From NCBI GenBank assembly GCA_016000265.1, contig JAECRL010000013.1:7387-71386 (forward strand): 64,000 bases of DNA, given 5' to 3'. Position 1 is the stretch's first letter. Each line of letters begins with the position of its first letter. Below are positions 1-26,938 of this stretch, in pieces. The notes beneath the pieces were generated by a model. That model was not told where the DNA came from. It saw only the letters and a program-made list of their open reading frames with translations, and ran no database searches. The stretch comes from Burkholderiales bacterium. Lineage in GTDB: Bacteria > Pseudomonadota > Gammaproteobacteria > Burkholderiales > Burkholderiaceae_C. The position numbers and the translations under genes were made by a program.

Positions 1-683
1 TTGATCATCGGGTCGAGCTTCTTGTACTTCTTGACGCTGTCGCTGTTGAGCTTGGCGTCAAACGCCGGCGACATCATCACCAGGCACTTCGGCGTGGGCA
101 GGCCCTCCAGCTCCAGCGCCTTGAAGACCAGCAGCGTCAGCGTGCCGCCGGCCGAGTCACCGGCCACCGCGATGTTCTCGGGCTTGTAGCCGCGCTTGAG
201 CAGGTCCTTGAAGCCCTCGACCGAGTCCTCGATCTGCGCGGGGAAGGGGTGCTCGGGCACGCGACGGTAGTGGATGGCCAGCACCTCGCAGTTGGCCAGG
301 CGGCTCAGGCGCGTGGTGATGCTGCGGTGGCTGCGCGGGCTGCCCGCGCAGAAAGCGCCGCCGTGCAGGTACAGCAGCGCGTGCTTCGGCTGAGGCGTGG
401 CTTTCGGCGTGATGCGCTCGGCCGTCATGTGGCCCACCTTCACGTGCTCGACCTTGACGCCACCGCCCGGCGGCATCGACACCGACAGCGTGTGCAGCAC
501 GGCGCGCTGCAGGCCCACCGGCATCGGCGGCTTGATCACCGGCTTGAACAGGAAGCGCAGGCTGGCGCGCATCAGGGCCGAGGTGATGCCCTCCAGCACA
601 CCCGGCACGGGCGGGTAGCTGCGCTGGATGGGCGCCGAAGCGGATGCGGAGGTGGCGGGGGTGGGGTTCATGACGGCGGACAT
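1..683 (-). CDS. Alpha/beta hydrolase, HSL-family esterase/lipase (3' end runs off window start)
   Basis: Not in ORF track because no stop in window. Manual translation from ATG at 683: MSAVMNPT...LLYLHGGAFCAGS...YRRVPEHPFPAQIED...IAVAGDSAGG; HGG oxyanion and GDSAG nucleophile motifs. Confidence 0.9.
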   Translation of the reverse strand, partial: MSAVMNPTPATSASASAPIQRSYPPVPGVLEGITSALMRASLRFLFKPVIKPPMPVGLQRAVLHTLSVSMPPGGGVKVEHVKVGHMTAERITPKATPQPKHALLYLHGGAFCAGSPRSHRSITTRLSRLANCEVLAIHYRRVPEHPFPAQIEDSVEGFKDLLKRGYKPENIAVAGDSAGGTLTLLVFKALELEGLPTPKCLVMMSPAFDAKLNSDSVKKYKKLDPMI

Positions 684-739
684 GTTCGGGTCGGTCGATC
701 CTGCGTTGACTTCGGTCGTGACGGCAGCAACACGGGGCC

Positions 740-1582
740 TCAGCCCAGCATGCCCTTCTTGGCAAACAGGGTGATGAGCGGTTGATACCACGAACCCAGC
801 ACGCGCACGAGCTTGTCGAGGAACTTGGCATCCAGGCCGACCAGCACGCGGCGCTGGTTGCCCTCGACCGCGGACAGGATCTGGCGCGCCGCGCTCTCGG
901 CGGTCGTCGCGTTGAGCAGCTTGTCGAACTTGGCGCGGGCCTCTTCGGTCTTGCCCCCGGTGGCGCGGTGCATGCTCTCGTCCATCTTGGCCGTGCGTGC
1001 GATGTTGGTGCGGATGCCGCCCGGGTGCACGCAGGTTGCGCTCACGCCGCACTGGGCCATGTCCAGCTCCTGGCGCAGCGCCTCGGTGTAGCCGCGCACG
1101 GCGAACTTGCTGGCGTTGTAGGTGCCCTGGGTGGGCACGGACAACAGGCCGAACAGGCTGGAGGTGTTGACGATGTGGCCTTCACCGGCCTTCTTGAGGT
1201 GCGGCAGGAAGGCCTGGGTGCCCCAGACCACGCCCCAGAAGTTGATGCCCATGATCCACTCGAAGTCTTCGGGCTTGACCGTCTCGACGAAGGCCCCGAG
1301 CGCCACACCGGCGTTGTTGAAGATCAGGTTGACCTGGCCGTGGTCGCGGGCGGTCTGGTCGGCCCAGGCGTACATGGCCTCGCGGTCGGCCACGTTGAGC
1401 TTGGCGGTGGTGACCTTGACGCCCAGCTTGGAGGCCATCGAGGCGGTCTCGGCCAGGCCCTTCTCGTTGACGTCGCTCAGCGAGAGGTGGCAGCCGCGGC
1501 GGGCCAGCTCCAGCGCCAGGGTGCGGCCCATGCCGGATGCAGCGCCCGTGATGGCGGCGACCTTGTTCTTGAAGTTCTTCAT
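740..1582 (-). CDS. Short-chain dehydrogenase/reductase (SDR)
   Basis: MKNFKNKVAAITGAASGMG (TGxxxGxG), NNAG, YNASK (YxxxK); start set at ATG 1582. Confidence 0.93.
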   Translation of the reverse strand: MKNFKNKVAAITGAASGMGRTLALELARRGCHLSLSDVNEKGLAETASMASKLGVKVTTAKLNVADREAMYAWADQTARDHGQVNLIFNNAGVALGAFVETVKPEDFEWIMGINFWGVVWGTQAFLPHLKKAGEGHIVNTSSLFGLLSVPTQGTYNASKFAVRGYTEALRQELDMAQCGVSATCVHPGGIRTNIARTAKMDESMHRATGGKTEEARAKFDKLLNATTAESAARQILSAVEGNQRRVLVGLDAKFLDKLVRVLGSWYQPLITLFAKKGMLG

Positions 1583-1840
1583 GTGGGTCCTCGGTGTCTG
1601 CCCGCCTGGCGTGGCGCGCTCGGTTGTCATCGCTGGGGAGCGAGCCAGGCCAGAGGGCCCGCAGACACAGGAAGCACCGCGATCTGCGGCCCACATCGCC
1701 CCGCAGCCACCCCACCAGCCCCCCGCCGCCACAAACGTGAGGCAAGATGCCGTGTTGGTCGCTCGGGCGGCCAGGCGCCCAACGGTGCGAAAATCCCGGG
1801 TGTCTGTCGGCCTCGGCCTGACACAGTCCTGACCAGGGTC

Positions 1841-1879
1841 ATTTGACAATGGTCAATTTCAAAATGGTATTTGACAATG
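1841..1879. promoter_or_regulatory. Putative TetR operator / divergent promoter region
   Basis: Palindrome TTGAC-AATG-GTCAA at 1843-1856; ATTTGACAATG repeated at 1841 and 1869; AT-rich patch just upstream of the TetR gene. Confidence 0.5.
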
Positions 1880-2614
1880 CCCGTTTCCAGAACGAGGGTT
1901 AACCCTGAAGCCCCCTCCACCACGGGGACAAACGGCCGGCGTTACGGCGGGGTCGACTCCGATGAGCGACAGCGCCAACGGCGCGCACGCCTGATCGAGG
2001 CCGGCCTGGCCGTGTTCGGGGAGCAGGGCTACCACCAGTCCACCGTTCGGGACGTCTGCAAACAGGCGCAGCTCACCTCGCGCTACTTCTATGAGTCGTT
2101 CGAGAGCATGGAGGCGCTCTTTCGCGCGGTGTTCGCCGAGGTGAACCGCCAGCTCATGCAGGCCACGATCCTGTCGCTGGCCACCTGCCAGCCCGAGCCG
2201 GACAAGCTCGCCGAGGCCGCGCTGCGCACCTTCCTGGAGTTCATCCGCGAAGACCCGCACCGCGCCCGCGTCGCCCTGATCGACGCCGCCAACGCCGGCG
2301 AAGGGCTGACGGTGCTGTCCGAGCAGGCCTCGCAAGACTTCGCCTTGCTGATCGCCGGCTTCATGCAGCAGATGTTCCCCAACCTCGAGGACAGCGGCCT
2401 GGACTTCAACATGCTGGCCAACGGCCTGGTGGGCGCCAACACCCGCGTGGCCACGCAGTGGGTCGCCGACCGCTGCAAGGCCCCCCTGGAGAGCGTGCTG
2501 CACAACCTGCTGACGCTGTTCAAGGCGTGCACCGCCTACGCCCGCGAGCAGGAGCAGGCTCAAGCCAAGCTCAAGCAACCGGCGCAGGCCGAAGCCAAGC
2601 GCAAGTCCGCCTGA
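1877..2614 (+). CDS. TetR/AcrR family transcriptional regulator
   Basis: RRARLIEAGLAVFGEQGYHQSTVRDVCKQAQLTSRYFYESF N-terminal HTH; divergent from SDR/esterase. Confidence 0.92.
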   Translation: MPVSRTRVNPEAPSTTGTNGRRYGGVDSDERQRQRRARLIEAGLAVFGEQGYHQSTVRDVCKQAQLTSRYFYESFESMEALFRAVFAEVNRQLMQATILSLATCQPEPDKLAEAALRTFLEFIREDPHRARVALIDAANAGEGLTVLSEQASQDFALLIAGFMQQMFPNLEDSGLDFNMLANGLVGANTRVATQWVADRCKAPLESVLHNLLTLFKACTAYAREQEQAQAKLKQPAQAEAKRKSA

Positions 2615-2671
2615 CGACGCCTGGGCCACCCCCGGCCGGCCCGGGGCCTGCGCTCAGCGCCCGGGCGGCGC

Positions 2672-3964
2672 TCAGATGAAGAAGCCCTCGAACAGCGCCA
2701 CCAGCCACTGAATCGGGTTGACCGACAGCACGCGCTTGCGGTCGCCTTGCTGGTCTTGTTCGATGACGCGCAGCACCGGCTTCGTGTCATCGACCAGGTT
2801 GTTGTAGAAGTCCACCACCGACTTGTGGCCGGCTTCTTCGATGCCGGTGCCGGTGAAGTCCAGCGTGACCAGGGTGTGCGACTTGAGGAACGGGCGCCAG
2901 ACCGGCAGGTAGTAGCCGGTGTTGCCCGCCGCGCGCAGCTGCGAGACCCAGTTGTTCAGGTCGCGGCGCCACAGCACGTTGATGGCGGCGTCCTTGTCCT
3001 TGCCGGTGAGCGACGCGATCTCGGGGTAGAAGCTGTTGTACGAGAAGGCCGAGAAGATGCCGTCTTCCTGGAAGGCCATGTAGCCGAAGCGGTCCTTGGG
3101 GAAGACCTTGGGCAGGCCGCTGTTGAGGGTCGACAGGTCGGAGACGTCGCCGGCCTGCGGGAACTGGCTGATCAGCTCGGTGGCCACGCCATCGGCGCGG
3201 TCCACGCCCCACAGCGAGCGCACCTTGTTTTGCAGCGGCAGCGAGGGGTACTGCGCCGAGGTGCCCGACTGAGGCGCCGGGAACAGCGGGCCGGAGTCCG
3301 CCGCCAGGGCCGATTTGGCCGGGTTCAGGGCCAGGCGCAGCACGCCGTAGTTGGCCGTGGCCCCCACGCCACCGGCCGAGGAGCCCGACACCAGCAGGTG
3401 CTCGGGCTTGGGCAGGTTGGCGGCCATCCAGGCGCCCAGCGCCTTGGCGTTCTTGTAGCCGCGGTGGTAGTAGACGGTGGGCTTGGCGGCGTCGGCGTCG
3501 TTGTAGGTGATGATGTTGGCGCCGGTGTGCACGTCGCCCGTGCAGTAGGGCACGTAGACGATGTTCCAGTTCTGCGTGTAGATCTTGCCCAGCAGCGGCG
3601 TGCGGGTGATCAGCGGCGTGGCCATGCCGAAGCCCGCCAGGTTGAGCTGGCTGAAGTAGTTCTCGGGCACGCCATTGGGGTTGGAGGCCACCTCGGTCAG
3701 CTTGCCCTTGCCCAGGCAGCCGTTCTGGTTCCAGCAGGCACCGCCGCCCTCGAAGTACACCAGGGTCTTGGTGGTCATCGGGGTGCGGTTGACGAACACC
3801 CGAGCCGGGGTGCCGTTGCCGCAGGACGCGCCCGACGCCGCCGGCAGCGTCACCGGGGTCCACTTGTAGTACTCGACGGCGGCCTGGGCCAGCATCGGCA
3901 GGCTCAGGGCGAGGCTGGCGAGCAGGGCGGGGCGGTGGAGGGCGGGGCGGTGGGTGGGGCGCAT
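2672..3964 (-). CDS. Secreted pectin acetylesterase/Notum-like alpha/beta hydrolase
   Basis: Signal peptide ending AQA; YFEGGGACW, YVPYCTGDVHTG and SGSSAGG motifs typical of the family. Confidence 0.8.
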   Translation of the reverse strand: MRPTHRPALHRPALLASLALSLPMLAQAAVEYYKWTPVTLPAASGASCGNGTPARVFVNRTPMTTKTLVYFEGGGACWNQNGCLGKGKLTEVASNPNGVPENYFSQLNLAGFGMATPLITRTPLLGKIYTQNWNIVYVPYCTGDVHTGANIITYNDADAAKPTVYYHRGYKNAKALGAWMAANLPKPEHLLVSGSSAGGVGATANYGVLRLALNPAKSALAADSGPLFPAPQSGTSAQYPSLPLQNKVRSLWGVDRADGVATELISQFPQAGDVSDLSTLNSGLPKVFPKDRFGYMAFQEDGIFSAFSYNSFYPEIASLTGKDKDAAINVLWRRDLNNWVSQLRAAGNTGYYLPVWRPFLKSHTLVTLDFTGTGIEEAGHKSVVDFYNNLVDDTKPVLRVIEQDQQGDRKRVLSVNPIQWLVALFEGFFI

Positions 3965-17989: not shown

Positions 17990-18358
17990 ATGAGCCACGC
18001 CGCCCCCCACGCTGCCTCCACGTCGACGTCGACCTGGACCCCCGTCTGCGCCGCCGACGACATCCTGCCCAACACCGGCGTTTGCGCCCGCATCGAGGGC
18101 ACCCACGTCGCCATCTTCCGAGTTGGCGCGGACCGCTTCTTTGCCATCGACAACGTCGACCCCAAATCGGGCGCCAGCGTGCTCTCGCGTGGCCTGGTGG
18201 GCAGCCTGGGCGAGCGCATCGTGGTCGCCTCGCCGCTCTACAAGCAGCACATCGACCTGCGCACCGGCGAGTGCGTGGAGTCGCCCGAGCTGTCGGTGCG
18301 CGCGCACGCGTTGCGCATCGAGGCCGGTCGGGTGCAGGTTCAACTGAGCCGGGGCTGA
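17990..18358 (+). CDS. nirD: Nitrite reductase small subunit
   Basis: WTPVC...ILPNTGVCA...VAIFR...DNVDPKSGASVLSRGLVG...VASPLYKQH; AAGGAG RBS. Confidence 0.95.
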   Translation: MSHAAPHAASTSTSTWTPVCAADDILPNTGVCARIEGTHVAIFRVGADRFFAIDNVDPKSGASVLSRGLVGSLGERIVVASPLYKQHIDLRTGECVESPELSVRAHALRIEAGRVQVQLSRG

Positions 18359-22597: not shown

Positions 22598-22729
22598 TCA
22601 GTTCAGGCAGCAGGCCAGTTGCGCCAGCCAGCAAGCCAGGTCGGCACAGCAGGCATCGGAGGCCCAGGCGGCGGCACTCAGGCTCATCAGCCCGAATGCG
22701 GCGAAGACCCTCGTCGATTTTTTGCTCAT
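22598..22729 (-). CDS. Cys-rich secreted micropeptide (43 aa, missing from ORF track)
   Basis: MSKKSTRVFAAFGLMSLSAAAWA-SDACCADLACWLAQLACCLN*; AGGAG RBS 8 nt upstream, signal peptide and own terminator. Confidence 0.8.
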   Translation of the reverse strand: MSKKSTRVFAAFGLMSLSAAAWASDACCADLACWLAQLACCLN

Positions 22730-22807
22730 GTTGCAAGCTCCTGGTGAGGTGTCAAAGGACCGGTTGTGCGCAGGCCCTTTGCCTGCGCGGCTTCGAGGCT
22801 TGCGCGC

Positions 22808-22828
22808 TCAGTTCGATCCATCCACAGC
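22808..22828 (-). pseudogene. Displaced original 3' tail of lipA (AVDGSN-stop)
   Basis: GCT GTG GAT GGA TCG AAC TGA continues lipA in frame if 22829-25185 is removed. Confidence 0.75.
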
Positions 22829-22835
22829 TGTGAAA

Positions 22836-22921
22836 GTCTCGCTCAATGGGAGAAAAATCGGGCTGGTTGGGGCGATTTGTCTCGGAGCGGGAGAAAACAG
22901 TCTCGCACTGGAAGGAAAAAA
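22836..22921 (+). repeat. Left-end array of putative transposase-binding repeats
   Basis: GTCTCG at 22836, 22879, 22900, each followed by a GGAGAAAA-like tract (spacing 43 and 21 bp). Confidence 0.75.
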
Positions 22922-23051
22922 CCAGCCAGCCGACTGATCGCGAGCCATGCCCCAATGCCCCCAACTTTGACCAGACGCCGCGCAATCAGCCTCCGTGTTG
23001 CCGCTCATTTGGCGGAGCCCTCCACGATCCACAATGCAAACGCGATCCGTG

Positions 23052-24172
23052 TCAGCTACCGCTCGGATCAGGCGATGATCTTGCAGCTTCAGCCAAGCTC
23101 ATCTGGGCGAATGGTCCGTACAGTTTGATGTCCAGGGCTTCTTGATCGACCGCACGGGTCTCGCAAGAGGCCGCGAGGGCGTCTAGCAAGCTATCGCCTG
23201 TTCGTGTCCAAGCTGTCTGCAAAGCCTTGCCGCTGAGGCCGATGTAGGGATGCGATGAATCACGCTCAAACGTGGGAAGCAAGAGGGCCACCTATACGTA
23301 CTGAACCGGTCAAGGAGCCCGACCAAGACTACCAATGCCGCACTGATGCCTCTTTGGCGCTGGACCGCACCATTCGCCCTCTCTCTAGCATCGATCTGCT
23401 CAGGGTTAGCCTTCCCGCTGAGTTCAAGCCCCGTCGCAATCTGTAACTCGGCGCATTCGCCTGCCACGAACTTATGGGGATCAACAGCTGGGCAGTCGGT
23501 GACAGTAAGCTCAAAATCGTCGAGGTCGATTGCCTCTTCCACGGGAACATCAAGCTGCGCGCGAAGCTTTGCTTCGATGTCCTTCTTGGCAGCTTCCGGC
23601 AGCGCGGCCAGGGAGACGCTACTGACCATCACCGTTCCGCCTGCGGCCTTGGGGACTTCGAAGGATGCGTCTGACGCAAAGACGAGGCCCGCCTTTGCAA
23701 GGTCCGAGAACCGGCGGCGATGGACGTACAACTTTGCAAGAATCGACGGTTTTACCTTTTTGGGTTTGGATTTCTTGCCCGTTTTACCCTTGCCTGCGGC
23801 TGGCGCGGTTGCTGGGTCGGCATGGCTGTCAGCGGCAGGGTCGTTCACCGCCTCGTCTTCTGGCTTGTCTGCCTTCAGCAAGCTCGGTAGCGTCCACTTG
23901 AGGGCCGACTCGTTTTTCTTCAGTTGGACGAACCGAACCGTCGTCGGGTCGGTAGAGGAATTCAGAAGAGCAATGTCCTGCTGCCACTCAAGGACGACGG
24001 CATAGTCGCCCGGATTTCGGTGCGCTCGCAGTGCCTCCAGCACTGCGAGCCACACCTGAAAGCTGAAGCCCTTGATGGCATGCCTACCGCCGGTCTCGTC
24101 GCCCTCGAAGTCATGGAAAAGGTCCGTGAGGACCTTCTGCAGCGGTGGTTCCGTCAACGTATTTGCTGTCAT
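23052..24172 (-). pseudogene. Cap4/DUF4297-type PD-(D/E)xK dsDNA nuclease, probably frameshifted near 23290
   Basis: G35-FSF-Q39, E62-WQQ-D66, Q83-L-K85 motifs; main ORF 23183-24172; protein-like frame 23052-23291 joins after a single-base shift at TAT AGG TGG; AT-richer than host. Confidence 0.7.
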
Positions 24173-24470
24173 CAAGCGTCTGGTGCGTGCACAAAACAAC
24201 GGAAAGGCCTGTGTCTCGCGAAATCCCTACTGCATGCGAGCATTGAGTCGTGAAGGATCAATACATCCGAAATATTAGGTATGTAGACTCAACAGTAGCG
24301 ATTATCGCGCCAATTTTTTCGCTAAAGGGTGCCCACAGGGCTGGTCACTGCAGCCCTTCTCATTGCGAATTGTTGATCGACCGCTGCGTGCAATAGCCGT
24401 CGCTGGTCAACCCATGGTTCAGCGTCTGCAATCAGCCTAAAGCTGACCGATGCCCGCGCCCCACCCTACC

Positions 24471-25059
24471 ATGGCGGGCTCACATCCACGAACCGAGACA
24501 CCGAAGCCCAATTCCGTCAGGATGTCTTGCAGAACGCGGTCAAAGCCACCGTCCTGTCGCGATGGCAGGACCTGGAGCTCCCCAATGCCTGGCTGGTGGC
24601 TGTCTGTTCCAGACAGTCTGGAACCTGCAACGCGGCCGCCCGCCTGGCCAGGGCATCAAAGACCACGACCTGTTCTATTTCGATCCCCCCGACCTGAGCG
24701 AGGCCGCTGAAGCGCAGGCCCAGTCCCGGGCAAGGTCCCTGCTGGCTGACCTTGACGCCACGGTTGAAGTGGCCAATCAGGCACGTGTCCACCTCTGGTA
24801 CTCAGGGCACTTCGGGCGACCATGCCCACCGCTGCAGTCGAGCGAAGATGGCATTCGGCGCTTTCTCGTGCTGGAAGCGTTTGTGGGCATTCGCCCCCAT
24901 GAATGCCACGCACCGTTTGGCTTCTCGGGGCTGTACGCGGGCTCGTTCACACCCAACCCACTCACGCCGTATCCGGAGCTGTTTGCCGCCAAGGTGGCCA
25001 GCTACCGAGCACGCTGGCCCACATCAGGGCGCGCGCCGACGCTGCTGAGCGAGACCTAG
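24471..25059 (+). pseudogene. DUF925 family nucleotidyltransferase-like gene, frameshifted
   Basis: QDVLQNAVKATVLSRWQDLELPNAWLVA in one frame, GCLFQTVWN...GIKDHDLFYFD...NQARVHLWY in the next; consistent with loss of one GGCT unit at ~24597-24600; 5' start unclear. Confidence 0.75.
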
Positions 25060-25110
25060 CCCGGGTCCACGCCGGTCACGCACGGCGCCCAAACCCTCGC
25101 GCCAAGCCCG

Positions 25111-25173
25111 TTTTTCTCCGCCTCTTCGAGATTTTTCTCGCCCACTTCGAGATTTTCTCTCTCAGTTCGAGAC
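25111..25173 (-). repeat. Right-end array of putative transposase-binding repeats
   Basis: Three contiguous TTTTCTC-N-TCGAGA units, CGAGA at 25127, 25148, 25168 (21 and 20 bp period). Confidence 0.8.
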
Positions 25174-26193
25174 ATTCACAACAGCCACCCCAGCCTGCAT
25201 GGCCTGCTGGTCGGCGTGGTAGCTCGAGCGCACCATGGCGCCCACCGCCGCGTGCGTGAAGCCCAAACGCTTGGCCTCTTCTTCGTACGCCTTGAAGGTG
25301 TCGGGGTGCACATAACGGCGCACCGGCAGGTGGTGGCCTGAAGGCGCCAGGTACTGGCCGATGGTGATCATGTCGATGCCGTGCTCACGCATGTCGCGCA
25401 TGACCTGGTAGACCTCTTCGTCGGTCTCGCCCAGGCCGACCATGATGCCGCTCTTGGTCGGCACGTCGGGGTGCAGGGCCTTGAACTTCTTGAGCAGGTT
25501 CAGGCTGAACTGGTAGTCGGAGCCCGGGCGCGCTTCCTTGTACAGGCGCGGCGCGGTCTCCAGGTTGTGGTTCATCACGTCGGGCGGCGCGGCCTTGAGG
25601 ATCTCGAGTGCGCGCTCGTCACGGCCACGGAAATCGGGCACCAGGATCTCGATGCGCGTGGCCGGCGACTGCTCGCGAACCTGCTTGATGCACTCCACGA
25701 AGTGCCCGGCGCCGCCGTCGCGCAGGTCGTCGCGGTCCACCGAGGTGATGACCACGTACTTGAGCTTGAGCGCCGCGATCGTCTTGGCCAGGTTGGCCGG
25801 CTCGTTGACGTCGAGCGGGTCGGGGCGGCCGTGGCCCACGTCGCAGAAGGGGCAGCGGCGCGTGCACTTGTCGCCCATGATCATGAACGTGGCCGTGCCG
25901 TGGCCGAAGCATTCGCCGATGTTGGGGCACGAGGCCTCTTCGCACACCGTGTGCAGCTTGTGCTCGCGCAGGATGTTCTTGATCTCGTAGAAGCGCGTGC
26001 TGGGCGAGCCGGCCTTGACGCGGATCCAGTCGGGCTTCTTGAGCACTTCGCCGGCCGGCACGATCTTGATGGGGATGCGCGCGGTCTTGGCCTGGGCCTT
26101 TTGTTTGGCCGACGGGTCGTAGGCGGCGGGAGCCCCGGAGGCAGGCGCTTGTGGCGCAGCCGGGGTCGAAGAGGAGGGGGGGGTCTCGGACAT
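25162..26193 (-). CDS. lipA: Lipoyl synthase (last codons supplied by the mobile element end)
   Basis: [28 protein letters not shown] motifs. Confidence 0.97.
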
Positions 26194-26254: not shown

Positions 26255-26938
26255 TCAAGGCGCCAGCGCGCGCTCGAGGTGCTGCGCCAGGCGGGCCGCG
26301 GCCTCGTCCCAGCCCACCTGCACGCCCAGGCTGGCCAGGTCGACCGTTTTCAGGCCGTTGTAGCCGCAGGGGTTGATGCGCGCGTAGGGCGAGAGGTCCA
26401 TGTCCACGTTCAGCGCCACGCCGTGGTACGTGCAGTGGCGCGTCACCTTGATGCCCAGGGCGGCGACCTTGCCCAGGCCGCGAAACGGGTCTGACGGGTC
26501 GGCCGGGCCGGTGAGCGCGGCGTGCGCGAACGGGTCGTCCAGCCGCACGTAGATGCCGGGGGCGCCCGCCACGCGGTGGCCCGTGACGCCCAGGTCGGAC
26601 AGGGTGCGCAGCACGGCCTGCTCCACGCGGTAGACGTACTCCTTGACGAAGTAGCCGCGGCGCTTGAGGTCCAGCAGCGGGTAGGCCACCACCTGGCCAG
26701 GCCCGTGGTACGTGACCTGGCCGCCGCGGTTGGTCTGCACCACGGGGATGTGGCCCGGCCCGGGCGGGTTGAGCAGCACGTGCTCGGCCTTGCCGGCCAG
26801 GCCCTGGGTGAACACAGGCGGGTGCTGGCAGACCCAGATCTGGTCGGGCTCGTCGGCGTCGCGCTGCTCGGTGAAGTCCTGCATCGCGCGCAGGGTGGGT
26901 TCGTAGGGCGCCAGGCCCAGGTTCAGAATCGTCGTCAC
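26255..26938 (-). CDS. lipB: Lipoyl(octanoyl) transferase
   Basis: [38 protein letters not shown]. Confidence 0.95.

Follow-up and report, generated by a model that had tools for sequence, protein, structure and literature searches.

Tn7 inserts through its TnsD pathway at attTn7, at the 3' end of glmS, and its tnsA gene adjoins the glmS-proximal right end of the element. Related elements use other conserved sites: Tn6230 inserts at parE, and type I-F3 CASTs occupy guaC, ffs, rsmJ and yciA. In Tn6022, the comM gene is disrupted and a separate selector, TnsF, is bridged by TniQ (PMC10293859). In the papers searched, among them Faure 2023 and Benler 2021, lipA is not mentioned as a site of Tn7-like elements, and the initial annotation knew of no lipA site either.

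The window (the whole stretch of 64,000 nucleotides analysed here) contains a small element in the last codons of lipA, the lipoyl synthase gene, and larger elements occur at the same place in other Burkholderiales. The elements at lipA share with Tn7 the TGT/ACA tips, the 5-bp target-site duplication (TSD), asymmetric arrays of ~20-bp sites, an insertion that is orientation-specific and keeps a set spacing from conserved coding sequence at the 3' end of a housekeeping gene, a packed-site end that faces the target gene, and the tandem or successive occupation of the site. The autonomous lipA elements also share TnsA, TnsB, an AAA+ adaptor and a TniQ-domain selector. They differ from Tn7 in the target gene itself and in the point of insertion, which lies inside the last codons and not downstream of the stop, so that tail and stop codon have to come from the end of the element. 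Furthermore, the selector is a short TniQ of about 340-355 aa instead of the 508-aa TnsD, TnsC is of the ~300-aa TniB type, no gene resembling the second-pathway gene tnsE was seen in the lipA elements, and their tns operon lies at the gene-distal, spaced-site end and reads toward the target. The comparison with the right end of Tn7 that was drawn from the window alone thus holds for repeat architecture and orientation, but not for the tns genes, which are found at the lipA-distal end.

With Tn6022/AbaR at comM, Tn6230 and the CASTs, the lipA elements have in common a Tn7-like core that is redirected to another conserved chromosomal gene, as well as defence-rich cargo, non-autonomous derivatives and scars at the site. 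Unlike Tn6022, they carry no conserved extra gene after tniQ and their target gene stays open; unlike CASTs, which are guided by RNAs, they have no guide RNA. Mini-Tn7 and MITE-like derivatives resemble the window copy in having intact ends and a TSD without a transposase, whereas the window copy is a natural deletion derivative, with a truncated lmuA and a broken NTP-transferase gene, that is stranded without a helper. The suggestion that the 3' end of lipA may be an attachment site is now supported by recurrence in at least seven genera and by larger elements with tns genes. The reading favoured here, with a probability of about 0.88, is that the 3' end of lipA serves as the attachment site of a Burkholderiales clade of Tn7-like elements, of which the window copy is a non-autonomous deletion derivative.

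The element in the window

The window copy has TGT...ACA termini (TGTGAAAGTCTCG... on the forward and TGTGAATGTCTCG... on the reverse strand), a 5-bp TSD and packed or spaced ~20-bp repeats, all of which are found in Tn7-like elements (Table 1). The repeat units are 21 bp long and have the form TCTCG-N8-GAGAAAA. Three occur at each end, packed on the lipA side and spaced on the distal side, and they are putative binding sites of a TnsB-type transposase. No further exact copy of the repeat units exists in the 3.56-Mb genome to which the window belongs, and shuffled sequence contained no tip matches. The GC content of the element is ~58%, compared with ~70% in its flanks. Over 71 nt, the lipA-proximal end is identical to the ends of autonomous elements in two other genomes, G401 and G402. 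Joining the flanks confirmed that removal of the element and one TSD gives a lipA tail ...QAGVAVDGSN* (the asterisk denotes the stop), while the present tail reads ...GVAVVNVSN*. As the initial annotation had noted, the last codons and the stop are read from the transposon end, which provides the last 19 nt of lipA. The genome carries a single copy of this gene.

Table 1. Features of the window, transposition genes of the G401 element, and transposon ends read in the frame of lipA
Feature	Location or size	Strand	Details
Non-autonomous Tn7-type element	22829-25180		2,352 bp, without transposase, in last codons of lipA
TSD, lipA-side copy	25181..25185	.	ACAGC on +, GCTGT in lipA sense
TSD, distal copy	22824..22828	.	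ACAGC; last 3 bases (TGT, lipA sense) are the tip of the older, probable relic end
lipA-proximal ('right-type') end	25106..25180	-	Tip TGTGAATG and three contiguous 21-bp units from 25172, 25152 and 25131; encodes VNVSN*
lipA-distal ('left-type') end	22829..22922	+	Tip TGTGAAAG, unit 1 at 22837, 22-bp gap, units at 22880 and 22901
Truncated lmuA (Lamassu Cap4/DUF4297 nuclease)	23183..24199	-	PF14130 1.5e-16; PADLOC LmuA 1.5e-33, profile positions 4-199 of 370
NTP_transf_6 nucleotidyltransferase gene, N-terminal part frameshifted	24450..25059	+	PF06042 1.8e-35
lipA (lipoyl synthase)	25162..26193	-	Pfam Radical_SAM 3.2e-26 and LIAS_N; alternative start 26211 possible
lipA stop codon	25162-25164	-	TGA from element
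Transposon-derived lipA 3' end	25162-25180	-	19 nt: last base of a Val codon, VNVSN, stop
lipA junction, lipA sense			...GGG GTG GCT GT/T GTG AAT GTC TCG AAC TGA; element from the slash on
lipB	ORF 26255-26938		Upstream of lipA
Probable relic of older lipA-proximal end	22791..22826	-	TGTGGATGGATCGAACTGAGCGCGCAAGCCTCGAAG; starts exactly 20 nt after QQ codons; gives tail VDGSN*
tnsA (G401)	248 aa		PF08722/PF08721
tnsB (G401)	641 aa		Sub-threshold Pfam only: Mu-transpos_C 1.5e-5, rve 4.4e-4, HTH weak
TniB-type tnsC (G401)	295 aa		PF05621, 5e-61
tniQ (G401)	354 aa		PF06527, 3.5e-29
Family 1 end in frame			T GTG AAT GTC TCG AAC TGA; tail VNVSN*
Acidovorax end in frame			T GTC AAT GAC TCG AAG TAA; tail VNDSK*
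Ideonella end in frame			T GTC AGC GAC TCG AAG TAA; tail VSDSK*
Hylemonella end in frame			T GTG AGC GAT CAG AAT TAA; tail VSDQN*
Polaromonas end in frame			T GTC AAC AAT CAG TAG; tail VNNQ*
Collimonas end in frame			T GTG AAA AAT CAG TAG; tail VKNQ*

Between its ends the window copy has two genes, both defective. Homology of its lmuA to the full-length gene stops at ~23404, the deletion breakpoint, and only the N-terminal half of lmuA is kept. Two metagenome contigs, L107 and L108, share 98-99% identity with the element between the lipA-proximal tip and ~23404, beyond which they diverge; both (L107 in positions 1-2930) represent its parental form and contain a full-length lmuA for a Cap4-type nuclease, followed by lmuB (2.6e-111), beside the NTP_transf_6 gene. 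At the other end, the 184 bp at positions 22828-23011 share 96% identity with the distal side of the large element in G402. The window element is thus a deletion derivative of a Lamassu-carrying element that kept the ends and lost the middle. Its NTP_transf_6 gene is 86% identical to the copy in the genome G455, and intact versions of 220-242 codons are found in the contigs L107 and L105.

Neither the window element nor the whole of its own genome encodes TnsA, TnsB and TnsC: homologues of these proteins and of TniQ were found nowhere in that genome by tblastn and with the TniQ Pfam model, and it contains no further copies or ends of the element. A helper could sit in the missing part of the assembly, which is 93% complete. 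Because both ends and the TSD are intact and a transposase is absent, mobilisation in trans must have occurred, probably by a helper that has since been lost.

Recurrence at lipA and the transposition genes of larger elements

To compare sites, the offset is defined as the number of nucleotides that lie between the QQ codons of the conserved YHADQQ motif and the TGT tip. When 185,579 reference genomes were searched for the tip plus the first unit, ten matches were obtained, seven of them in Aquabacterium. The other three (in Pseudomonadales, Vicinamibacteria and Bradyrhizobium) have no repeat arrays and were dismissed as chance matches, as was the sole match among 400 family genomes, which lies at a gene start in G157 and also lacks repeats. 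The plasmid collection yielded nothing beyond weak NTP_transf_6 similarity. Among the seven are three lipA-proximal ends, each adjoining the 3' end of lipA, in G401 (uncultured Aquabacterium), G402 (ANIsp_002) and G412 (5N352), and two distal ends with matching TSDs, in G401 (GTCGT) and G402 (GTGGG). The lipA tails were also surveyed in 58 Aquabacterium genomes. G455 has a family-1 end at lipA with a mutated tip (TATCAATG), and a metagenome scan revealed four more junctions (L104, L106, L107 and L108), bringing the family-1 ends at lipA to eight other Aquabacterium genomes or metagenome contigs.

The prediction that TGT-ended elements recur at a fixed position was borne out in these genomes, mostly at an offset of 20 nt. 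This value applies to G401, G402, G412, G455, L106 and L108, and also to G445 (C11 ~18130-18212; L061/L095) and G425 (C55; L062/L096), where a second, related end type with units of the form TCAGAAG-N-GAGAAAA (sequence TGTCGGCCTTCAGAAGTAAATGAGAAAA...) adjoins lipA. No tns genes or distal end were detected in the 18-20 kb of sequence covered at the latter two ends, and a close TniQ is absent from both genomes. The offset is 19 nt in L107, 23 nt in the window and 14 nt in L104, a decayed copy whose mutated tip is 6 nt nearer to the QQ codons, consistent with a 6-nt deletion. Among 16 aligned sites from seven genera, 13 have offset 20 and one each has 19, 21 and 23; L104 is the 17th. The packed-site end faces lipA at every aligned site, and the junction 5-mers or TSDs (GTCGT, GTGGG, GTGGT, GTTCG and others) and the flanks vary from site to site. 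The outcome that the initial annotation had named as refuting a lipA site, with ends at unrelated random sites and never at other lipA genes, was not seen; all ends of the family with an intact tip adjoin lipA, and the displaced distal junctions in A. parvum, described below, keep lipA-downstream sequence from the TSD on. The sole end away from it, in contig L105 (TARA_B110001454_G_scaffold207289_1, 56-3417), is a decayed lipA-proximal end (tip TGCCAATG, two units) that lies with an NTP_transf_6 gene directly downstream of glmS and may be a remnant within an island that occupies the classical Tn7 site.

In the search for tniQ or tnsD in larger versions, tnsA, tnsB, tniB and tniQ were indeed found in the large elements. 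The four genes of G402 are the same as those of G401, with 95-99% amino-acid identity; tnsA and the tniB-type tnsC score above the Pfam cut-offs in both genomes, and the tnsB assignment is based on size, position and the sub-threshold Mu-transpos_C and rve matches. A 282-aa ORF after tniQ and ORFs of 208 and 301 aa before tnsA were considered as further transposition genes and rejected, as they have no homologues and low-complexity translations and are spurious frames over opposite-strand genes (an HTH-type regulator, PAAR-like and other cargo). In none of the relatives compared is tniQ followed by a conserved gene, which leaves TniQ as the only candidate selector. An AlphaFold model of this protein (41-sequence alignment, pLDDT 80.9) matches, over ~350 alignment columns each, the TniQ of a type I-B CAST (8fcu_P, 6.7e-5) and the TnsD of a TnsD-TnsC-DNA complex (8v32_J, 1.4e-4).

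The TniQ clade extends well beyond Aquabacterium. At E<=1e-10, 1,229 homologues were retrieved, mostly 335-372 aa long and ~50% identical, with source names that include Rhodoferax, Polaromonas, Hylemonella, Undibacterium, Collimonas, Acidovorax and Ideonella. One named genome was inspected for each of six genera (Polaromonas, Hylemonella, Acidovorax, Collimonas, Undibacterium and Ideonella). Each of these genomes has lipA 8-30 kb beyond tniQ and convergent with tnsA-tnsB-tniB-tniQ, and in each a TGT tip with contiguous ~21-bp units follows the (Q/E)Q codons at offset 20, or 21 in Undibacterium. Distal ends with matching TSDs were located in Ideonella (GTGGC; restored tail GVA*) and Undibacterium (CAGAT); an exact search for the TSD plus TGT found none in Hylemonella, Acidovorax and Collimonas. 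Altogether, the association between the TniQ clade and lipA holds in eight of the eight genomes examined. In Polaromonas sp. UC242_47 (L111, 2909-8206), a 1,765-aa gene with a weak SACS-like match is located between tnsB and tniB and splits the operon.

Replacement tails, older insertions and target selection

Insertion at this position takes little or nothing away from the LipA protein, since many lipA genes end near offset 20: about 23 of 53 readable Aquabacterium tails stop no more than two codons from it (AGVV*, AGVA*, AGVQV* and others). Each end type provides an in-frame stop after 4-7 codons in the frame set by offset 20, although these stops are not independent trials because the ends are homologous. 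At offset 19, as in L107, a TGA within the tip ends the protein immediately. The retention of the stop while the neighbouring sequence diverged suggests selection to keep LipA short. The tail-swapped LipA of the window is likely functional, as indicated by its intact frame, the single-copy status of the gene and the natural variability of the tail.

The tail VDGSN*, which the initial annotation obtained by removing the element, appears to be itself a degraded transposon end left over from an earlier insertion at offset 20. Read in the sense of lipA, the restored site is GGGGTGGC/TGTGGATGGATCGAACTGAGCGCGCAAGCCTCGAAG, where the slash marks offset 20. The restored tail and the 20 bp past its stop are identical to the live end (TGTGAATGTCTCGAACTGAGAGAGAAAATCTCGAAG) in 28 of 36 positions. 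This resemblance to the element's own lipA-proximal end implies that the seemingly native allele is not pristine. In the nearest relative, G437, whose lipA 3' end is 96% identical to that of the window and lacks the element, the relic is better preserved and longer (CGTCGATGGCTCGAACTGAGAGAGCAAACCTCGAAGCTGTGGAGGTGAACGGG, 30 of 36 identical), and a fused remnant of the last unit comes after it. The likeness runs past the stop codon into the second repeat unit, and protein conservation cannot explain it. Alternatively, VDGSN* might be no fossil, and the transposon end might have evolved to copy an ancestral Aquabacterium LipA tail. This would account for the presence of CGAACTGAG in register in the live end, the window tail and the unrelated tail GVGAIPAN* of G402 and G422, and the early in-frame stop in all ends of the clade means that the ends were clearly shaped by the gene. 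However, the likeness extends to CCTCGAAG in the second repeat unit and, in G437, to the fused last unit ...GGAGGTGAACGGG. Moreover, the short tails that stop at or near offset 20 are apparently the basal state in Aquabacterium, and GTCTCG/TCTCG recurs in all six repeat units and is thus dictated by the transposase and not by lipA. Copying is therefore an improbable explanation, and a fossil end is preferred.

According to the fossil reading, the common ancestor of the window genome (G000) and G437 would have carried an element at offset 20 that was later deleted to about 40-55 bp, leaving VDGSN* as the LipA tail. The 2.35-kb mini element would then have entered 3 bp beyond that point, with duplication of GCTGT and VVNVSN* as the new tail; owing to this shift, its TSD includes the TGT of the fossil. 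A fixed lipA site, as originally proposed, is supported by the recurrent offset of about 20, but not strictly kept in the window, where the offset is 23. The restored tail of G401 (GGTGGATGTCTCGAAG, 13 of 16) looks like another fossil end, and several other Aquabacterium lipA tails begin with TGT at offset 20.

Autonomous members of the clade would use TnsA and TnsB as a heteromeric cut-and-paste transposase, together with the short TniB-type TnsC and a single short TniQ. At the 16 occupied sites in seven genera, the closest DNA with strong conservation, ATGGTGCG...TAYCAYGCNGAYCARCAR (ATGGTGCG...CAGCAG), lies 20-65 nt upstream of the insertion. TniQ may bind this part of the lipA coding sequence and, via TnsC, direct insertion in one orientation ~20 nt beyond the QQ codons, within the final codons of lipA or immediately ahead of them. 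At the occupied sites, LipA keeps its catalytic body and gains a short replacement tail from the packed-repeat end. The geometry is the same as that of TnsD on glmS, and recognition of lipA by TniQ is suggested by this analogy and by the co-occurrence of the two genes. The spacing is not absolutely fixed, as the offsets of the window (23), one metagenome copy (19) and Undibacterium (21) demonstrate, and mechanistic details may differ from those of Tn7, given the lipA-distal tns operon. A more far-reaching proposal, with somewhat less than an even chance of being right as a whole, is that the short TniQ, without a TnsD-like extension or partner, reads the lipA sequence alone, that the end has been selected to encode a working LipA C-terminus, and that decayed ends were repeatedly fixed as the tail, which would explain much of the LipA tail diversity in Aquabacterium and its relatives.

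The 3-bp shift in the window would also be explained if this insertion had been aimed by the pre-existing relic end, with the transposase or TnsC recognising end-like DNA, and not by a TniQ reading lipA. The window copy is the only one at offset 23, its target relic matches the live end to the degree described above, and the TSD overlaps the TGT tip of the relic. Sites free of a relic, however, are used at offset 20 in Ideonella and in the G402/G422 pair, and offsets of 19 and 21 are also seen elsewhere. In Tn7, a target that contains end sequences is protected from insertion (target immunity) and does not attract it. Guidance by the relic is improbable, and selection by TniQ remains the preferred reading for the window as well.

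Much less probable is a single ancient insertion that was inherited vertically and diverged without repeated homing, although most sites occupied by family 1 fall in one genus. The two TSD copies are identical within a genome and differ across genomes, and the elements vary in cargo and in size, from 2.35 kb in the window to 50.2 kb in G401. Close relatives have empty sites, among them G437 and also G422, which is 99.0% identical over 800 bp, ungapped, to the restored site of G402. Together, these three observations rule out one inherited insertion for practical purposes, and the occupation of seven genera, the divergence of the ends and the two successive events recorded in the window itself are also at odds with it. 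Chance insertion via a non-targeted pathway, or integration of an island by a site-specific recombinase, would suit the single copy in the window genome but is hardly credible in view of at least 15 occupied lipA sites inside a 5-bp window, the lack of an encoded integrase in the window element, and the 5-bp TSD and TGT/ACA tips, which are marks of transposition.

Cargo, implications and minor observations

Repeated homing to lipA adds this gene to the short list of Tn7-like homing genes, for which both occupied and empty alleles occur in nature. The compact machinery of four genes and the lipA site might be developed into a tool for site-specific single-copy integration in Burkholderiales, comparable to mini-Tn7 at glmS. 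The locus is also a clear case of a mobile element inside a coding sequence that keeps the gene alive through a tail and stop codon of its own, and the ends of fossil transposons can persist as protein-coding sequence. In genome annotation, the varied C-termini of LipA, as well as 'orphan' repeats that follow the gene, can be interpreted as transposon scars.

The region downstream of lipA emerges as a hotspot of defence islands. The cargo seen comprises Lamassu, ORC/Cdc6-like and phosphoesterase proteins, T5orf172/DUF4041, GmrSD, RAMP proteins and T6SS PAAR. In the 50-kb element of G401 (L029-L031; contig 11561-61728), an ORC/Cdc6-like ATPase and a calcineurin-like phosphoesterase are found among conflict-type cargo, PAAR/T6SS-like genes lie directly upstream of tnsA, and a DUF4041/T5orf172 protein and a two-component system are also encoded. 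Two ORFs of 430 and 362 aa without assigned function adjoin the lipA-proximal end of this element and recur in G402.

Just downstream of the restored lipA site, the window contains a gene for a small Cys-rich secreted peptide (22598-22729, reverse strand) that is conserved in G437 (L099). About 290 bp, including a small membrane-protein-like ORF, separate the relic end from this gene in G437 and are missing from the window.

In A. parvum B6, lipA itself is unoccupied and has the tail GVR* (L123, contig 165). Contig 363 of the same assembly (L063-L065; 9814-9841 and 24290-24380) carries two distal-type ends in the same orientation, away from lipA. One of them is truncated after the first unit and is followed by a 535-bp copy of lipA-downstream sequence, 94.8% identical, that begins exactly at the 5-bp TSD. 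These ends look like displaced fossil junctions, perhaps brought about by rearrangement, by transfer with flanking DNA or by a mixed assembly.
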